From assembly GCA_965232115.1 (NCBI GenBank), contig OZ246958.1, forward strand, positions 4,806,991 through 4,870,990: 64,000 nucleotides of DNA. The letters run 5' to 3'. Shown one piece after another: positions 35,433 to 62,362 of the stretch. Numbering within the stretch: the stretch's first letter is position 1; every line of letters starts with the position of its first letter. The notes below the pieces were generated by a model, which worked only from the letters and a program-made list of their open reading frames with translations, made no database searches and had not been told where the DNA came from. Both the position numbers and the translations under genes were made by a program. Source of the stretch: Candidatus Poribacteria bacterium. Its GTDB lineage: Bacteria; Poribacteria; WGA-4E; WGA-3G.

Positions 35433-37198
35433 TGTTTGGCACGCAAAGAGATTTCAAAAACCGTATTGCCGAATATCAAAGCAGCTTGGTAGGTATCAAA
35501 CACCTTCATCAATTATCGCCAATGCGTCCGAAACCGAATCGCCCGATTACTGTCCACGCGACCACATCTGGCAGCATCGCTTACGACTCAGTTCGTTGTT
35601 GGATGAATGTAAACGGTGAAGAAACAACATTCAAACTCACCCCAAGTAAATCAATATGGAATAGACTTGAATGGCGATACGTCCGTCCCTGGCACGGAGA
35701 GATGCCGCCGCAACCAAATGGAGCAACGGTGCGTTACAAGATTGGTGGACGCGTTCTGGACGCAAATAACTGGATTTTTGCGGATAACCAAGCGCGAGTC
35801 CTTTCGGAAGCAACAGAGTTTGCGATTTCGGTGGACGATTACGATGCGTCGACATGGGTTCGTGATGCCGTTATCTATCATATCTTTCTGGATCGATTTT
35901 ACCCAGGAGATGGAGTCCCGTGGAAAAAACCGACAGACCTCTCTGGTTTTTTTGGTGGCACGTTACGCGGTGCAATTCAGAAACTTGACTACATCCAATC
36001 GCTCGGCTGCAATGCTGTATGGCTTTCTCCACTTTTCGCAAGTCCAACCCACCACGGCTATGATGCTACAGATTACTACACTGTTGAACCTCGGTTCGGC
36101 ACGAACGCGGAACTGATAGAACTCATTGAAAAAGCACATCAGCGCGGGATACGTGTTATCCTTGATTTTGTCGCCAATCATTGGTCGAACCATCATCCGA
36201 CGTTTCAAGCAGCACAACGCGATCCAAACAGTGAATATCGGGGGTGGTACACATGGCAGCGATGGCCCGACGAATATACAAGTTTCTTCGGCGTGAAAGG
36301 GATGCCGCAACTGAATCTAAAGCATAAACCCGCAAGCGACTATCTACTGAAATGCGCACAGCATTGGTTACGCAAAGGCGTTGATGGCTATCGGCTTGAT
36401 TATGCCCCAGGGCCTCCACACACATTTTGGGCAGATTTCCGCCAAGCTTGTAAAACTGTGAATCCTGACGCTTTCTTGTTTGGAGAAGTGGTTAGTCATT
36501 CAGAAGCGATAGCGTCTTATGTTCCACATTTCGACGGGTGTCTTGACTTTTTGCTCGCGGACGCGCTGCGGGAAACTTTTATTCTTGAGACTTCAACGCT
36601 ACTGGAATTTGAGGCGTTTTTAGTCGCACACGAGACCTATTTTCCCAAAGATTTCGCACTCCCTGCTTTTTTGGACAATCACGATATGACGCGTATTCTC
36701 TACCTGGCGGGGGAGGATAAAGCAAAGGTGCGCTTAGCAGCATTGGTCCTCTTTACACTCCCCGCACCACCTATAATCTACAACGGTACGGAGATAGGAG
36801 TCTCACAACGGAACCCACTCGGGCGTTTTGAGGAGGCACGGTTGCCAATGCCGTGGGGAGATGAAGCAGACGGAGATTTATTAGGTTACTTCCGACGTTT
36901 GGGGACACTACGGAAACAGTTTTCAGTGCTCACTTCTGGTTTGCGAAAGATTGTTCATCTGAACGTTCAGAAAGGGACTTACGCGTATCTGCGCACTTCA
37001 GAAACGAATTCTATCCTAATCGCCTTGAATACGAGTCGGCGTTCTCAGACGATCGATGTCCCAGTGGAATTGGGACAGCATCGTGATTCGGAGATCGCTC
37101 CTATTTTGGAAGACCGCCTCAATGGAAACCCCGTGACAGTATCAGACGATTCCATAAGTATTTCATTGCCAGCACAAAGTGGGGCGTTTATCGTTTGA
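35433..37198 (+). CDS. GH13 alpha-amylase-family glycoside hydrolase (neopullulanase/cyclomaltodextrinase-like)
   Basis: GH13 conserved regions (GCNAVWLSPLF, RVILDFVANH, GYRLDYA, FLDNHD). The start is taken downstream of the terminator; the 35330 ORF would read through that terminator. Confidence 0.85.
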
Positions 37199-37282
37199 GA
37201 TGTAACATAAAAAATAGAAAAGGGACCGACAACTACAGAATACTGTCCCCGGTCCCCTTCTTATAGGTGTTATGAGATGGGA

Positions 37283-37933
37283 CTATTGGGTATCACCAGC
37301 ACCATCACCCATGTCTTCCATGCCATCATCCATCATCATGTCATCCATGGAGAGCGAAACGAAGACGCTGTCGTTCGTAGCACCAATGTGGCAACCGTGG
37401 CAGCCATTGCCTGCATCTTCAAGGTTGGATCCTCTGATCTGCATATACGCAGCATCTGCACTGGGACGCAGATATTTTTTGTAGACCCAGCCATTGTGAC
37501 CGGCATACATCATATCGTCGCTTTTCATCATCACGGCGACTTTATCAACAAACGTTTCGGTCTTATCCATAATTTCCTTGACGATCACAGTACCAGCCGG
37601 ATATTCTGCTGCTCCCGCCTTGTTCGCCATAGCACCGATATCGTTGATATAGACAGTGCGTGCGGTAAGAGCACCACCGTCTATCGGGGGTGGATTGTGG
37701 GCTGCTCCTGTCTCTGCCGGACTCGTAGCTGCTTCCATCGGGCCTGGGGCTGGAAGTATAACATGCTCCCATGACTGGTGTGCCGTCATGTCCATCATCA
37801 TATCAGCCATCATATCGTCAGCTGCCATCATATCGTCAGCTGCAGGTTTTAAGACTTTTTGCGCTCTGTCACAGGACACGAAGGCAACACAAACAATTAA
37901 AACCGCAATCAAAAAGATTTGGCGTTTTAACAT
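37283..37933 (-). CDS. Lipoprotein with Met/Asp-rich (DDMM) low-complexity arms flanking a CXXCH heme-binding domain (possibly cytochrome P460/c'-beta-like)
   Basis: Lipobox (FVSC). N-terminal DDMMAADDMMADMMMDM and C-terminal SMDDMMMDDGMEDMGDG. Single CHGCH. Central domain motifs (TVYINDIG, GTVIVKE, GWVYKKY) recall P460-like proteins. Confidence 0.55.
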   Translation of the reverse strand: MLKRQIFLIAVLIVCVAFVSCDRAQKVLKPAADDMMAADDMMADMMMDMTAHQSWEHVILPAPGPMEAATSPAETGAAHNPPPIDGGALTARTVYINDIGAMANKAGAAEYPAGTVIVKEIMDKTETFVDKVAVMMKSDDMMYAGHNGWVYKKYLRPSADAAYMQIRGSNLEDAGNGCHGCHIGATNDSVFVSLSMDDMMMDDGMEDMGDGAGDTQ

Positions 37934-38063
37934 TTTTGATGCTCCTTATTCTATATTTATTACAATGAAAAAATAACGAAAAGCAAATGGAACCGGAAAC
38001 CCCAAAATTGAGGTTACCAGTTCCGTTCTTATAGGCACAAATTACACGAATTATAAAATGGAA

Positions 38064-38477
38064 CTACTGATTGGTATCCTCGTCGTCCATACCATTATCA
38101 TCATGGTTGTCCATCATGCCATCGTCGTCCATCATACCATCGTCCATCATGCCATCGTCGTCCATCATGCCATCATCATGCATCATGTCGTCGTCCATCA
38201 TGCCATCGTCCATCATGCCGTCATCATGCATCATGTCGTCGTCCATCATGCCATCGTCCATCATGCCGTCATCATGCATCATGTCGTCGTCCATCATACC
38301 ATCGTCCATCATGCCGTCATCATGCATCATGTCGTCGTCCATCATGTCTTCTGACGAACTGCCTTCCTGCATCATGTCATCGGTAACCGGCATCATGACC
38401 TGCTGTGCCCTTTCACAGGATACAAAGGCGAGACAACTGATTAAAACAGCAATTAAAAGAATCTGAAATTTTAACAT
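38064..38477 (-). CDS. Lipoprotein made almost entirely of Met/Asp/His repeats (DDDMMHDDGMMDDGMM)n; paralog of the preceding gene's N-terminal region
   Basis: Its signal peptide and 5' region are homologous to 37283..37933. The rest of the 137-aa protein is a 16-aa unit repeated about 5 times. The upstream promoter/RBS region is conserved between the two genes. Confidence 0.55.
   Translation of the reverse strand: MLKFQILLIAVLISCLAFVSCERAQQVMMPVTDDMMQEGSSSEDMMDDDMMHDDGMMDDGMMDDDMMHDDGMMDDGMMDDDMMHDDGMMDDGMMDDDMMHDDGMMDDDGMMDDGMMDDDGMMDNHDDNGMDDEDTNQ
38130..38340. repeat. 48-nt coding tandem repeat (about 4.5 units)
   Basis: atgcatcatgtcgtcgtccatcatgccatcgtccatcatgccgtcatc repeated head to tail. 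This produces open reading frames in several frames. Confidence 0.75.
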
Positions 38478-38684
38478 TGTTTATGCTCCTTGTTCTATAT
38501 ATTATACAAAGTAATACGTTAAGGAAGAGGAACAAATCTCTTATCGAGGTTCTAAAGCAACAAAGCCTATCACGTTAGCGCGTCCCTCTCCAAACCCATA
38601 TACCATACAATTTGAGCAAATTATACAATATTGCACTTTAATTTACAATAAAAATCTAAAAACATTGCAACTTATAGATCACTT

Positions 38685-40355
38685 TTATGGATCGGTTTTT
38701 CGGATTTCTGAGCGAACTTTAAGAATATAGGAGTGATTAGGGGCTTGGGTAAAAGCAGCCTCAATTTCACGTCCAGCATCGGGGATCCTATTGAGACGGT
38801 GATAAACAAGTGCCAATGTGGCACGGTGTGCTGGTTGCCCATCGCTTTTAACGGCGGCTTCAGCAAGGATAAGTGCTTCATCAAGATCTCTGTTTTCCCA
38901 TGCAAGCAAGGAGGCCAACGCCTCTTTTGGAAATGAAACATCCGGTGCGAGCTGGATTGCCCGGCGAAAATCGGTCTCCGCCATACCAGATGCCCCCTGT
39001 TTCTGATAAATTTTTCCACGCCACAAATACCCGGGTGCCCACGTCGGTTCGTGCTGTATTCCCATTGTCAAGGCTTGCCCAGCAGCTGCCAATTCTCCGA
39101 TGCTCTCATGTAAGTTTGCAAGCTGCACATAGGCATTCATAAAATCAGGTTCATGCTGGATGAGTGTAAGGTAGCGTGACGCAGCCGCCGTTTGATCTCC
39201 AAGCTTTGCCTCTATTATACCGAGATGTAAAAGTGCCTGACGTGAGGTCGGATCTATCGTAAGGACCCGGTGATACGACAGCCTGGCACTTGTCAATTCG
39301 CCAAGTTGCATCTGAACATAGGCATAATCTTTCAAGGCAGGCGTAAACGTATCGTCCGTATCAAGTGCCTTCTGCAGGGGTGTTAAGGCACGCCGTAGCT
39401 GCTTCTCTTGAATGAACCAATGCGCCTGACGAAGATAGCGTTCAGCAAGCGTCCGACGATAGCGCGTCTCAGCAGCTTTTGCCTCCTTGGCATTTCCCAT
39501 ATCGCGTAGAACATCTGCGAGTGCCTTGTGAAACACCGGTTCACGCGGTGCATAGCGGACAGCACGTTCATAAAAACGTCGAGCAATAGCGAACTGGCCA
39601 CGCCTTAAACCGACTTCACCACGTCCAAACGCTGCACTGGCAAGCGTCTCATCTTGCGCGAGTGCCTCCCTAAAAACGGCATCGGCTTCGTCAATCCGAT
39701 TGAGTTTGAGAAGTACATGCCCGAGATTGTTATAGGCAGCAGTCGTGTCGGGGTGCAATTGGACAGCAACAATATAGTATCTGCGCGCCTGCTCCAAGTT
39801 CCCACGCTCCGTCTCAATCTGTCCCAAAGCGACGTACCACGCCGCGGGTGTGTCCTCACCAGCACCTTTGACGGCTTTTTGAAACCACGTATCAGCCTCG
39901 TCAAGCTCCTTGTTGCGGTGATATGCAGCAGCAAGTTTAGCCTGAACTATAACCCGTAGGCGTGACTTTGTAATATTGCCTTGTGGTTCGGTTGAGAGGT
40001 GTTGCAAGGCACGTTGGAAAGCAGCAATAGCGGTGGGATAATCCTTCAACTTTGCAGCGGCATCCCCCACTCCGATGTGGATAATTGGAAATTCGGGTGC
40101 TTCCTCGGTAAGACGCTGATATAATTGGAGTGCCTCGCGCCACTCCTCTGCCTGGAATGCCCGCTGTGCATCCTTTAACCGCTTCTGAAATGGCTTCGGA
40201 TAGTTCGTTATATCGTTGGATAAGAGATCTCCAAACGTCGTCGTAGTAAACAAAAATAGGAGAACTCCCAGAAAAAATAGATGCCATTTCTCTGTTAGAA
40301 CGTTCCGCTTTATCTCTCTATTTTCCGTGAGGGGTAGGTTATAATAATTCCGCAT
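38685..40355 (-). CDS. TPR-repeat protein with N-terminal membrane anchor
   Basis: Multiple 34-aa TPR units (AxxxxGxxxxxxGxxxEAxxxYxxAL). One TM helix near the N-terminus. Confidence 0.7.
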   Translation of the reverse strand: MRNYYNLPLTENREIKRNVLTEKWHLFFLGVLLFLFTTTTFGDLLSNDITNYPKPFQKRLKDAQRAFQAEEWREALQLYQRLTEEAPEFPIIHIGVGDAAAKLKDYPTAIAAFQRALQHLSTEPQGNITKSRLRVIVQAKLAAAYHRNKELDEADTWFQKAVKGAGEDTPAAWYVALGQIETERGNLEQARRYYIVAVQLHPDTTAAYNNLGHVLLKLNRIDEADAVFREALAQDETLASAAFGRGEVGLRRGQFAIARRFYERAVRYAPREPVFHKALADVLRDMGNAKEAKAAETRYRRTLAERYLRQAHWFIQEKQLRRALTPLQKALDTDDTFTPALKDYAYVQMQLGELTSARLSYHRVLTIDPTSRQALLHLGIIEAKLGDQTAAASRYLTLIQHEPDFMNAYVQLANLHESIGELAAAGQALTMGIQHEPTWAPGYLWRGKIYQKQGASGMAETDFRRAIQLAPDVSFPKEALASLLAWENRDLDEALILAEAAVKSDGQPAHRATLALVYHRLNRIPDAGREIEAAFTQAPNHSYILKVRSEIRKTDP

Positions 40356-40359
40356 CTGC

Positions 40360-41313
40360 TCACTTCGTCGTGTTCTCCTGGTCCAGTGCGTCGCCCAAAA
40401 TGTGCCAACTTACCTCTTGTCTCTGTTGGACTAACCATGCTGTGAATTCCGCCTCTGCTTTCTCTTGCTGAATCCGGTCGATAATCTCCTCACTAACCTC
40501 CTCATAAGTCTTTTGGCGCGCTGGATTGTTCTGGATGCGTTCAACAATCTGATATCCATCTGAAATACGGAGGAGAGCACTCCGATCAGAATCCGACAAC
40601 TCGGCTGCAATAACACCTAACGGCGTGTCTGCCGCAAGCGTCAACACCTCAAGTTCAATAGTTAATTGCGCCTCATAGACTTCACGTACAGTCTCAAATG
40701 TTTCGCCTTGCTGCAAACGCGCATAGAGTTGTTGCACCGTACCTTCGGCTCTCTGCTTCTCCGCTTCTGAAGCATCCTTCGGTATAACGATAGACAACGC
40801 GTTAAGGATAATCGTGGGTGGCACAATAAATTCGGCACTGTTCGCATCATAGTAAGACTTGGCTAACGTTGCGATCTCTGCGCTATTGAGAGCATTGAAA
40901 AATATGCGACGGAAAAATTCATCGTAGACCAGCTGCTCATAAATCCACGCTTTAAGCGCTTCGTCTTCCAACCTATGCCGTTGTAAAACAGTTTGGAACG
41001 CTGCATCCGAATCATATTTTTTACGAATTTCAGCTATCTTTTCCGCTACGCGCACGTTAGGCTCGGCGACAACAATGCCGAGTCGCTTAGATTCTTGTAA
41101 AACAAACTTGCGGTTAATAATAGCACCAAGCGCAACTCGATCATTAGTAATAATAGAGGACTCCATGATAGCAGCGATACCCAATTCATTTTCGAGTTCG
41201 CTGCGCGTAACGGCATCTCCACTAACAACCGCGATGACAGTATCAATTAGGATCTGTGCATCTGCCCTGCTGGTTATACAGAGCAAAAACAAAAAGACGA
41301 CCAAACGTACCAT
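40360..41313 (-). CDS. SurA-N-domain-like periplasmic chaperone
   Basis: Signal peptide. Pattern similar to the N-terminal chaperone domain of SurA/PpiD. No clear PPIase domain. Confidence 0.4.
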   Translation of the reverse strand: MVRLVVFLFLLCITSRADAQILIDTVIAVVSGDAVTRSELENELGIAAIMESSIITNDRVALGAIINRKFVLQESKRLGIVVAEPNVRVAEKIAEIRKKYDSDAAFQTVLQRHRLEDEALKAWIYEQLVYDEFFRRIFFNALNSAEIATLAKSYYDANSAEFIVPPTIILNALSIVIPKDASEAEKQRAEGTVQQLYARLQQGETFETVREVYEAQLTIELEVLTLAADTPLGVIAAELSDSDRSALLRISDGYQIVERIQNNPARQKTYEEVSEEIIDRIQQEKAEAEFTAWLVQQRQEVSWHILGDALDQENTTK

Positions 41314-60059: not shown

Positions 60060-60887
60060 TTAATATGAGGATTTAATCTCACTCCAAGTGGTAGAGAGTT
60101 TACCTTTGGCATCAACATCAAAGCCGTTGGCATTCGTAACCAGAACACTATCAACTCTGCCCATTCCCCAGCTTTCATGCCAGATACCGACGCTGCCAGC
60201 ACTGGTATTATCGGCATTTTTGTATTCAAGGATAGGAGCTCCGAGGTCTTCGGAGGATGCAAACAGGTCATCAACCTCAGCAAGTTCCATGTACCATATC
60301 TTGACATTCTTGCCATCGACCTCAACGCGTCCGAAATAAGGGACAGCGTTGGTTTGGTCGAGCCCGCCGCCTAAGCCGTGTGGCACAGATTCTAATTCCT
60401 TACCGCCGTTCTCACACCCGCACTGGTCGAGACACTGGCCAGACGGACAGCAGCCATCTGCGAGATCCATGAAAAGGACAGATGCGGTTTCATTATATCC
60501 AAAGACAGCAAGGTAGCCTTTATCGTCCCCTTTGCGCCGGAACTGAAGCCCCACACTATCATCATCACCAAACGAGAAGACCATTTGGACGATACCGTCG
60601 GTGAAGTTATCAACGCCGGGCAGTGCTGTGTTACCGGAGATGCCACAGCCTTCAGCGGTTTGCTTCATGGATCCTTTTCCGCCGAGTTTACCGCCTTCAA
60701 AATCATCCGCAGCCCAGATGGTCCCGGCGTTCTCGGCTTTATATTTTTTGATGTCGTTCACACCTGCATCAGGTATAGCGTCCTTAGAGCCCGGCTCAAA
60801 ATCGGCGTAAAACACAACTTGCCCGGTAGCGTGAAGTGAAACAAATAGACTCAAAGTGAGAATTAAAAGAAAAAAACGTGTTTGCAT
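60060..60887 (-). CDS. Secreted protein with conserved Cys motif ADGCCPSGQCLDQC(G/S)CENGG; paralog 1
   Basis: Signal peptide. Near-identical architecture to 61538..62362 and weak resemblance to 13775..14620. Probably a beta-sandwich lectin-like fold. Confidence 0.5.
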   Translation of the reverse strand: MQTRFFLLILTLSLFVSLHATGQVVFYADFEPGSKDAIPDAGVNDIKKYKAENAGTIWAADDFEGGKLGGKGSMKQTAEGCGISGNTALPGVDNFTDGIVQMVFSFGDDDSVGLQFRRKGDDKGYLAVFGYNETASVLFMDLADGCCPSGQCLDQCGCENGGKELESVPHGLGGGLDQTNAVPYFGRVEVDGKNVKIWYMELAEVDDLFASSEDLGAPILEYKNADNTSAGSVGIWHESWGMGRVDSVLVTNANGFDVDAKGKLSTTWSEIKSSY

Positions 60888-61537: not shown

Positions 61538-62362
61538 CTAATAGCTGCTTTTAACGTCGCCCCAGGTTGTGGAAAGTTTGGAATGTGGATCGACCGCTGT
61601 CATGCCGCCGGGTCCCCAAACAGAGACGCTACCGACTCTTCCGTTGCCCCAACTTTCGTGCCAGATGCCGACTGTCCCGGGTCCGGCATCATCTGCGCCG
61701 TCATATTCAGCGATTGGATCGCCAAGATCATCAGAGCTTGCGAAGAGATCGGATACATCATCAAGTTCCATGTACCAGACTTGAATGAGGCTTCCGCTGA
61801 CTTCAACACGCGCAAAATAGGCGACGCTGTTGTCTTGTGTGAGATCGGCCCCTAAGCCATGGTCCACACCGACGAGTTCGTTACCACCGTTTTCGCACGA
61901 GCACTGGTCGAGACACTGTCCAGACGGACAGCACCCATCCGCAAGACTTCCGATAATAATTTGGGGGGTTTCGTTATAACCGAATGCGACGAGATAGCCA
62001 CTGTCTTCACCAACACGACGGAACTGGAATCCGACACCGTCATCATCTTGCCATGAAAAAACGGCTTGGATGATACCGTCGGAGAAGCTATCAACACCCG
62101 GAAGCGGTGTATTCCCAGAAATACCACAGCCTTCAGCACTCTGATGCAAAGCATTTCCGCCATCAGGGAATTCAGCGGACTCGACCCAAACAGTACCAGC
62201 GTTTTCTGGCACCCAATTTGCGGGGTCGTTGACGCTGGCATCAGGGACGGCTGCAGAGGAACTCGCTTCAAAGTCAGCATGGAAAATTAGCTGCGCGCTT
62301 GCGTGGCTAATTAGGACAATTGAAAAAAGCGCGATGAACATCGTGAGGTAGGTTCTTTTCAT
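61538..62362 (-). CDS. Secreted Cys-motif protein; paralog 2
   Basis: Same length and blocks as paralog 1 (HESWG, AEGCGISGNT, YLVAFGYNET). Confidence 0.5.
   Translation of the reverse strand: MKRTYLTMFIALFSIVLISHASAQLIFHADFEASSSAAVPDASVNDPANWVPENAGTVWVESAEFPDGGNALHQSAEGCGISGNTPLPGVDSFSDGIIQAVFSWQDDDGVGFQFRRVGEDSGYLVAFGYNETPQIIIGSLADGCCPSGQCLDQCSCENGGNELVGVDHGLGADLTQDNSVAYFARVEVSGSLIQVWYMELDDVSDLFASSDDLGDPIAEYDGADDAGPGTVGIWHESWGNGRVGSVSVWGPGGMTAVDPHSKLSTTWGDVKSSY

Follow-up and report, generated by a model that had tools for sequence, protein, structure and literature searches.

What does a bacterium gain from a small exported protein that is made almost wholly of aspartate and methionine? 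The question is raised by two adjacent genes in a 64,000-nucleotide stretch of a Candidatus Poribacteria genome (GenBank assembly GCA_965232115.1, contig OZ246958.1, positions 4,806,991 to 4,870,990 of the forward strand; hereafter, the window). Gene A (37283..37933, minus strand; 216 residues) encodes a lipoprotein in which a cytochrome P460-family haem domain lies between Met/Asp-rich arms, and gene B (38064..38477, minus strand; 137 residues) encodes a paralogue without the haem domain, a Met/Asp tandem-repeat lipoprotein. The entire transcription unit was copied to give gene B, which retains the 5' element, the leader, the terminal ...Q, and the terminator but not the haem domain; by in-frame repeat expansion, its arm has grown to 116 residues. 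As to function, our favored and still tentative reading, to which we assign a probability of about 0.4, is that gene B and the arms of gene A may form a sacrificial methionine (thioether) buffer against oxidants, coupled to the P460 haem protein.

Both genes are ATG-started open reading frames (ORFs) on the minus strand, at the coordinates given in a preliminary description of the window, and gene B has orthologues with the same leader. Its protein starts MLKFQILLIAVLISCLAFVSC followed by ERAQQ and continues as (DDDMMHDDGMMDDGMM)n, nearly all Asp, Met, Gly, and His. Signal peptide and lipobox are read from the sequence as residues 1 to 21 (38415..38477, minus strand; ...AFVSC, with Glu at +2), and this leader is kept in orthologues. 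The lipoboxes of both genes were assigned by eye against a PROSITE-type rule, and AFVSC predicts that gene B is an exported small lipoprotein. A conserved mature N-terminus, ERAQQVMMPVTDDMM (residues 22 to 36; 38370..38414, minus strand), appears as ERAQQIMTPVTDDMM in orthologues of the upstream type, to which gene B belongs. The 48-nt tandem repeat that the preliminary description had placed behind the lipobox is there and in frame (38109..38346, minus strand), with 4.9 copies of the unit (Tandem Repeats Finder, score 386, 93% matches) and sub-periods of 15 and 33, both multiples of 3. One synonymous GGT/GGC change is the sole difference among the first three 16-codon units, which argues that the repeat expansion is recent. 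A noncoding satellite or CRISPR-like array is ruled out by the in-frame 48-nt period together with the conserved leader, as is on/off phase variation, because every period is a multiple of 3. Opposite the repeat lie shadow ORFs on the plus strand (38058-38354, HHAIVVHH..., and 38071-38466, SSIMPSS...), and ORFs of the same kind occur in every orthologous locus.

The composition of the mature, 116-residue gene B protein is extreme: 37% Asp, 30% Met (35 residues), 10% Gly, and 4% His (5 residues), with Asp and Glu together at 41% and a net charge of -46. In all other window ORFs of at least 120 residues, Met makes up 0.5 to 4.9%. The methionines come as MM pairs with a period of 5 to 6; there is one MxxH, and MxM, MxxM, and HxxM are all absent. 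No Pfam or NCBIfam family, copper families included, matched gene B, which bears out the earlier impression that the repeat protein belongs to no characterized family. Exact-sequence look-ups of the gene A and gene B proteins returned no match.

What is the domain that gene B lacks? The Pfam family Cytochrome_P460 (PF16694) matches gene A with 41.5 bits against a curated cut-off of 27, residues 90 to 191 corresponding to profile positions 21 to 124 of 125. This identifies as haem binding the globular CXXCH core that had been noted between the Met/Asp arms, although its cytochrome P460 identity had been missed. A profile built from 23 family members and searched against the PDB matched M. capsulatus cytochrome P460 (McP460; 6hiu/9hrk) at E 1.6e-4 and also cytochrome c'-beta (6hih). 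From the Pfam match and this profile, the core spans residues 53 to 194 (37352..37777, minus strand). It is preceded by a signal peptide and lipobox read from the sequence (residues 1 to 21; 37871..37933, minus strand; ...AFVSC with Asp at +2, and C21 almost invariant in the family alignment) and by an N-terminal Met/Asp arm (residues 22 to 52; 37778..37870, minus strand; 25% Met), and it is followed by a C-terminal Met/Asp arm ending in Gln (residues 195 to 216; 37286..37351, minus strand; 25 to 27% Met). Two to three MxM/MxxM motifs fall in the arms.

The haem site of gene A carries the residues expected of the family. Its single CXXCH, the haem c attachment motif CHGCH (residues 178 to 182; 37388..37402, minus strand), lies near the C-terminal end of the domain, and C178, H179, C181, and H182 are invariant in the 23-sequence family alignment. 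Equally invariant are K119 (AGTVIVKEIMD; codon 37577..37579, minus strand), which aligns with the haem cross-linking K78 of McP460 and with F61 of c'-beta, and Arg92, which aligns with the capping Arg50 of McP460. According to a 2025 review of the superfamily, the cross-linking Lys (Lys70 in N. europaea P460 [NeP460], Lys78 in McP460) defines P460 proper, and a distal carboxylate (Glu96 and Asp102, respectively) is found in both hydroxylamine-oxidizing members and is missing from the non-oxidizers (PMC11928373; roles of the haem-site residues in its Table 2). The catalytic Asp102 of McP460 is tentatively aligned with a Val of KVAVMMK in gene A, in a loop that contains gaps. Modeling of gene A with AlphaFold2 on the 23-sequence alignment gave a structure (predicted local distance difference test score 48, predicted template modeling score 0.40) of too low a quality to support a fold search or to judge the distal pocket, and we did not use it. 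Gene A is predicted to be a lipid-anchored P460-superfamily haem c protein with Lys at the cross-link position.

Like the cytochromes P460 (N. europaea CytL and McP460) and the cytochromes c'-beta, gene A combines PF16694 with a C-terminal CXXCH, and it shares with McP460 the Lys at the cross-link position and the Arg at the capping position. Unlike all of these, it is a lipoprotein with Met/Asp arms, and two tandem P460 domains occur in some of its orthologues. Its host also belongs to a heterotrophic, sponge-associated phylum and is neither a nitrifier nor a methanotroph. In E. coli, a lipoprotein with Asp at +2 stays in the inner membrane. Behind the lipidated Cys, gene A has Asp and gene B has Glu, and most orthologues have one or the other; if the E. 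coli rule applies, both proteins would be anchored in the cytoplasmic membrane and face the periplasm.

How did the pair arise? The leaders of gene A and gene B are identical at 26 of 36 residues (E 8e-16), and a 17-mer, TATAGAAYAAGGAGCAT, which contains the Shine-Dalgarno sequence, is found nowhere in the 64 kb but at these two genes, even when three mismatches are allowed. It forms part of a 5' element that is conserved across species, lying at 37934..37975 for gene A (minus strand; including TATAGAATAAGGAGCAT at 37939-37955) and at 38478..38520 for gene B (minus strand; including TATAGAACAAGGAGCAT at 38483-38499). The preliminary description was therefore right to call the genes tandem paralogues with a shared 5' element; the wider upstream conservation that it reported is real but is concentrated in the proximal ~45 nt, less than the span it gave. 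The likeness extends to the 3' ends, which that description did not mention. The stop-codon regions and the hairpins that follow them are homologous: a terminator-like hairpin with a U tract lies at 37218..37260 behind gene A (minus strand; RNA fold -22.6 kcal/mol, z -2.1) and another at 37989..38024 behind gene B (minus strand; -24.6 kcal/mol, z -3.4, with none of 200 shuffles as stable). Because 5' element, leader, 3' end, and hairpin are all homologous, the entire transcription unit was duplicated, each copy with its own terminator. We considered whether the leaders are alike only as a common Poribacteria signal peptide, the same leader being present in a lipoprotein with an LTD domain (P0140), and rejected this because the shared 5' element, terminator, and C-terminus show true paralogy. 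A consensus scan found a candidate sigma-70-type promoter (TTGTAA-17-TATAAT, 10 of 12 matches) ~145 nt upstream of gene B (38620..38648, minus strand), and an Rfam scan of 36900-39000 gave no credible RNA family.

The relatives of gene A suggest where such arms come from. The Lys of the YPxGTxIVKE motif is kept in P460-like proteins of Thermoleophilia, Gaiellales, Flavobacteriia, Neptunomonas, Spirochaetes, and other Poribacteria paralogues, and many of them are lipoproteins whose lipobox Cys is followed by a linker of low complexity, rich in Pro, Glu, and Gln (Pro and Glu in the actinobacterial ones). A more distant Poribacteria P460-like lipoprotein (L053:4845-5345) has a His/Asp-rich linker, DDDHDDHDHDHH (CGEDDDHDDHDHDHHG), after its lipobox. 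As low-complexity linkers are common in the relatives, the arms of gene A appear to be the usual lipoprotein tether, which is Met/Asp-rich in this clade, and gene B can be read as the tether alone, expanded.

How widely is the pair conserved? A scan of one genome per species gave 77 loci, ~44 of them Poribacteria loci of the gene A/B clade, and the P460 gene was located by ORF scan in 38 loci (37 scanned Poribacteria loci and the window). In 29 of these 38 species loci, a gene next to the P460 gene encodes a small, acidic lipoprotein that has tandem repeats and the same leader. The gene B family is thus real, conserved, and uncharacterized; its members with a source name are annotated as hypothetical. 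Gene A has more than 225 homologues (204 to 378 residues), of variable arm length and some with two tandem P460 domains; the best 120 are 47 to 91% identical, and those among them with a name are Candidatus Poribacteria proteins. Across 38 species, the gene A orthologues have a median of 26% Met in the N-terminal arm and 11% in the C-terminal arm. Proteins with two tandem P460 domains, each with CXXCH and Lys (325 to 473 residues; gene at ~5001), are encoded at loci L021, L024, L027, L029, L031, L033, L034, L036, L037, L039, L041-L043, L047, and L048. One metagenome scan with the conserved Shine-Dalgarno and leader pattern recovered only two loci, both from other species.

The 5' element is kept across species for both the P460 and the small-lipoprotein gene types. 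In five loci (L011, L016, L026, L028, and L044), a motif containing the Shine-Dalgarno sequence (TATAGAATAAGGA...) is tandemly duplicated upstream of the gene B orthologue. An inverted repeat, TTGACAAC-n3-TTTGTCA, stands ~35 to 50 nt before the ATG of downstream-type genes (L013, L015, L022, L023, L025, L035, L040, and L050) and is absent from the window; it could be the operator for a regulator.

Within the small lipoproteins (76 to 169 residues overall), the only conserved part beyond the leader is the first ~15 mature residues; the repeats turn over rapidly. The 20 upstream-type genes encode proteins of 90 to 165 residues that start MLKFQ...SCERAQQIMTPVTDDMM, with median Met at 30% (range 11 to 34), median Asp+Glu at 40%, and Lys+Arg at ~1%; their repeat units change between species, from DDGMM to DGTMM, DDTMM, DDHMEDDMM, DDHMEDDMMDDGMM, and GDDM. 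The nine downstream-type genes are more diverse (DMD, PMEE, PMAD, DMPEP, GMGGMANDDDDDD), and two Met-free repeats were found, TTPEVE (L013, side unclassified) and ADETTPP (L023). A C-terminal Gln ends 33 of 38 P460-type and 22 of 34 small-lipoprotein orthologues after quite different repeats (..GDAQ, ..GDTQ, ..NGGTQ); it may be a recognition or attachment signal or may reflect shared ancestry alone. In the window, its codons are 37286-37288 and 38067-38069. Repeat number, which the preliminary description had expected to vary, does so among close strains, with the reservation that assembling repeats is difficult: among proteins clustered at 90% identity, P0124 and P0145 are one DDDMM unit apart, and P0123 and P0144 are four units apart. 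The C-terminus of P0144, CLLYTSPSPRDGLL..., looks to us like a translated sequencing adapter, presumably an assembly artifact in a public contig.

Could gene B be a decaying partial duplicate, its frame open only because the repeat contains no stop codons? An open frame by itself proves little, as two further frames across the repeat, both on the opposite strand, are open too. The pattern of conservation makes such a remnant very improbable. ATG, Shine-Dalgarno element, leader, and mature N-terminus are shared by dozens of species with P460 proteins only 42 to 90% identical, all repeat periods are multiples of 3, and the frame reaches the C-terminal ...Q of gene A in most species. Maintenance of the frame through arrays that are constantly replaced argues against a dead remnant.

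Is methionine itself what is being kept? It may be that gene B is a disordered, polyanionic tether or brush of a generic kind. Such a flexible acidic chain, anchored by its lipid, would serve as a spacer for P460, as an electrostatic or steric brush, or as a binder of Ca2+/Mg2+, and Met would be a lineage-specific filler favored by slippage of ATG/GAY-rich repeats. What all members of the family have in common is acidity (18 to 54% Asp+Glu), tandem repetition, and a lipobox; the P460-like lipoproteins of other phyla have linkers that are low in complexity but rich in Pro, Glu, and Gln; the C-terminal arm of gene A orthologues has its median Met of only 11%; and the Met-free repeats of downstream-type paralogues are acidic all the same. 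However, the upstream-type genes hold their 30% median across species in which the units (DDGMM, DGTMM, DDTMM, DDHMEDDMM) have been replaced independently, and the N-terminal arm of gene A is Met-rich, with its 26% median over 38 species. That Met persists while the repeats turn over speaks for selection on Met itself, and we consider a mere tether or brush rather unlikely.

If Met is selected, what could it do? In the thioether-buffer reading, the exposed thioethers of gene B and the gene A arms would be a sacrificial and probably renewable methionine buffer on the periplasmic side of the membrane. Reaction with two-electron oxidants (hypohalous acids, peroxynitrite, and peroxide-derived ferryl equivalents) would convert the Met residues to Met sulfoxide and so shield the P460 haem enzyme and its neighbors, while the dense Asp would keep the gene B chain soluble, extended, and disordered. 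Peroxide drives formation of the Lys cross-link in P460, by way of ferryl intermediates that tend to enter off-pathway reactions and to degrade the haem (PMC10411619); this gives a chemical reason for placing thioethers beside a P460 haem. The nearest functional precedents for gene B are probably the MrpX-type peptides and, less closely, SilE/PcoE. MrpX (Azospira suillum Dsui_0158, of the SigF/YedYZ hypochlorite response) contains 20% Met and 44% charged residues, is oxidized by hypochlorite, and is recycled by the periplasmic methionine sulfoxide reductase YedY/MsrP (PMC4436054). Gene B, with its 30% Met and 41% acidic residues, is likewise small, exported, nearly all Met and charged residues, and free of recognizable domains, in agreement with an MrpX-like pattern of at least ~20% Met, mostly charged other residues, and no folded domain. 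The two differ in that MrpX is described as a soluble periplasmic protein co-transcribed with yedYZ (msrPQ), whereas gene B is a lipoprotein beside its parental P460 gene, purely acidic, and built of recent tandem repeats.

We then asked what accompanies similar compositions elsewhere. The repeat part of gene B alone was searched against 5.8 billion proteins, and genomic context was viewed for non-Poribacteria matches on contigs with visible neighbors. Three related lipoproteins of 68 to 69 residues (P0152, P0155, and P0159; MHDDGMMKEDKMMKDDGMM...) all adjoin a methionine sulfoxide reductase MsrA bearing a Sec signal and an MsrB bearing a twin-arginine (Tat) signal. Another peptide, secreted and 85 residues long (P0142; MMDDGMKKDGGM...), is encoded immediately upstream of genes for a two-component system, a CcdA-thioredoxin fusion, and an exported MsrA-MsrB fusion. 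These loci (L004:5968-10643, L087:6001-7404, L088:2198-3616, and L090:262-1667) look like an MrpX-type arrangement with MsrA/B in place of MsrP. The four peptides share DDGMM, MMxDD, and MHDDGMM words with gene B and carry a signal peptide or lipobox; unlike gene B, they are Lys-rich as well as acidic, shorter (68 to 85 residues), from other lineages, and linked to msr genes rather than to P460. A Met-rich composition thus goes with extracytoplasmic Met-sulfoxide repair in two independent lineages. The neighbors of two further analogues, P0141 and P0136, were uninformative. The whole-library phmmer search gave 83 matches at E <= 0.001, which comprised Poribacteria orthologues and assorted low-complexity proteins; many of the latter, such as Leu/Asp and Val/Asp/Glu repeats, are unrelated and were not used as evidence, and small secreted MMKDD-type peptides were merely noted as common.

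Several observations weigh against a thioether buffer. What gene B has in common with MrpX and the Msr-linked peptides is composition, without demonstrable sequence homology, and the Msr association extends to only two independent lineages. MrpX-like peptides mix Lys with Asp and Glu, whereas the gene B type is purely acidic. A motif scan of the 64-kb window and of the 5 kb on either side of the scanned Poribacteria loci found no MsrA or MsrB, and msrP/Q do not appear among the Pfam labels of the ten genes flanking the pair, although no search aimed at msrP/Q was made. Finally, some downstream-type paralogues have little or no Met (TTPEVE, ADETTPP), which indicates that members of the wider family can do without it.

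Might the thioethers bind metal instead? The preliminary description had proposed a high-capacity copper or metal buffer, and in this form the chain would be a soft-metal sponge, its Met thioethers, Asp, and occasional His binding many Cu(I)/Ag(I) ions, with Cu(II) held by carboxylates, as a periplasmic copper buffer like SilE/PcoE, the CueO inserts, or the Pseudomonas CopA repeats. The very high Met density, with 35 Met in 116 residues and some His, speaks for such a sponge, as does the His/Asp linker of the L053 paralogue, which shows that this protein family can carry linkers of a metal-binding type. In human Ctr1, MM clusters have a part in Cu(I) uptake. The arguments from motif and composition on which the proposal was built hold up less well: clustered MxxM had been invoked, yet gene B has neither MxM nor MxxM, the spacing used by Mets-motif Cu(I) sites of the Ctr1, CopC, and CusF type, and the density of Asp and His had been taken to favor cation capture, yet His is present in only 5 of the 20 upstream-type orthologues. 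Tandem or clustered Met with Asp, His, and Gly is known from periplasmic proteins, namely the inserts of the multicopper oxidase CueO and the MDHSxMxGM repeats of Pseudomonas CopA/CopB. Those segments lie within copper enzymes and combine MxM/MxxM spacing with His, whereas here MM pairs with a period of 5 to 6 stand in a haem protein and a stand-alone lipoprotein.

SilE and PcoE are closer in form. They are small, exported, and disordered, they bind six to nine Ag+/Cu+ through His and Met, relying on ten positionally conserved His and on Met motifs, and they are located in sil/pco operons (PMC5008109). Gene B resembles them in being small, exported, Met-containing, probably disordered, and, to judge by composition, provided with many sites per chain. 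It departs from them in that its five His are not conserved in orthologues and such motifs are lacking. The surroundings also differ: none of the ten flanking genes in the window has the Pfam label of a cop/cus/pco/sil-type gene, and the gene list of the 5-Mb contig L001 contains none. No clear copper-handling neighbor was seen at any compositional analogue examined; at one locus, a resistance-nodulation-division adaptor with faint CusB/CzcB matches stands beside an ATP-binding cassette transporter. A copper-binding arm on a haem-only P460 enzyme would, moreover, have no obvious rationale. We therefore regard a metal buffer as possible though on balance unlikely, and not as the best-supported explanation, the closest analogues being neighbors of exported methionine sulfoxide reductases.

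A further reading is a dedicated accessory role toward P460. Gene B and the arms would then contact the haem domain directly instead of serving as a bulk buffer, for example with a Met that briefly ligates the open distal site, by controlling how the cross-link matures, or by docking a partner. The adjacency of the two genes in 29 of 38 species loci fits such a role, the common 5' element suggests co-regulation, and P460 maturation both requires peroxide and passes through ferryl intermediates. Against this, there is no evidence of covariation, conservation is limited to the first ~15 mature residues, and the repeats change too fast for a specific interface, so that we judge this role improbable.

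What would follow if the chain is indeed a buffer, whether of oxidants or of metal? The MrpX idea would be extended to a membrane-anchored, tandem-repeat form and to a candidate phylum of sponge symbionts, and it would be linked to cytochrome P460 rather than to an msr operon. A broader version of the thioether-buffer reading holds that, Poribacteria-wide, a P460 enzyme is coupled physically and genetically to a ~30%-Met polyanionic lipoprotein module acting as a renewable thioether redox buffer, which would permit peroxide-driven haem maturation and hydroxylamine (NH2OH)/nitric oxide (NO) turnover in an oxidant-rich sponge host; in this full form, the proposal is decidedly doubtful. A coupling of methionine redox cycling with P460 chemistry has not been described before. 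Literature searches linked Poribacteria neither with P460 nor with methionine sulfoxide reductase, and the words methionine and lipoprotein do not occur in the review of the P460 superfamily (PMC11928373). Independently of the role of gene B, the analysis flags a large subfamily of P460-like lipoproteins in non-nitrifiers (Poribacteria, Thermoleophilia, Flavobacteriia, and Neptunomonas); these proteins have Lys at the cross-link position and may matter for the turnover of hydroxylamine, NO, and N2O in sponge holobionts. There is also a modest practical value, as gene B, with 116 mature residues and two dominant amino acids, offers a clean, easily expressed test case for thioether redox buffering versus soft-metal binding.

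The neighbors of the pair point to no pathway. By their Pfam labels, the ten flanking genes encode dehydrogenases, hydrolases, an alpha-amylase, a tetratricopeptide repeat (TPR) protein, a SurA-like peptidyl-prolyl isomerase, and enolase-superfamily enzymes. The window and the 5-Mb contig L001 have a common order: SurA-like protein, TPR protein, small lipoprotein (133 residues in L001), P460 protein, opposite-strand alpha-amylase, and TIG/Big_5 protein. The 556-residue TPR protein and the SurA-like isomerase (Rotamase_2), periplasmic folding factors, lie directly upstream of gene B (38685-41313, minus strand), and their synteny is conserved in L001. Farther away in the window, the ORFs at 60060-60887 and 61538-62362 (both minus strand) have similar secreted N-termini (...FYADFEPGS.. 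and ..FHADFEASS..) and look like tandem paralogues.

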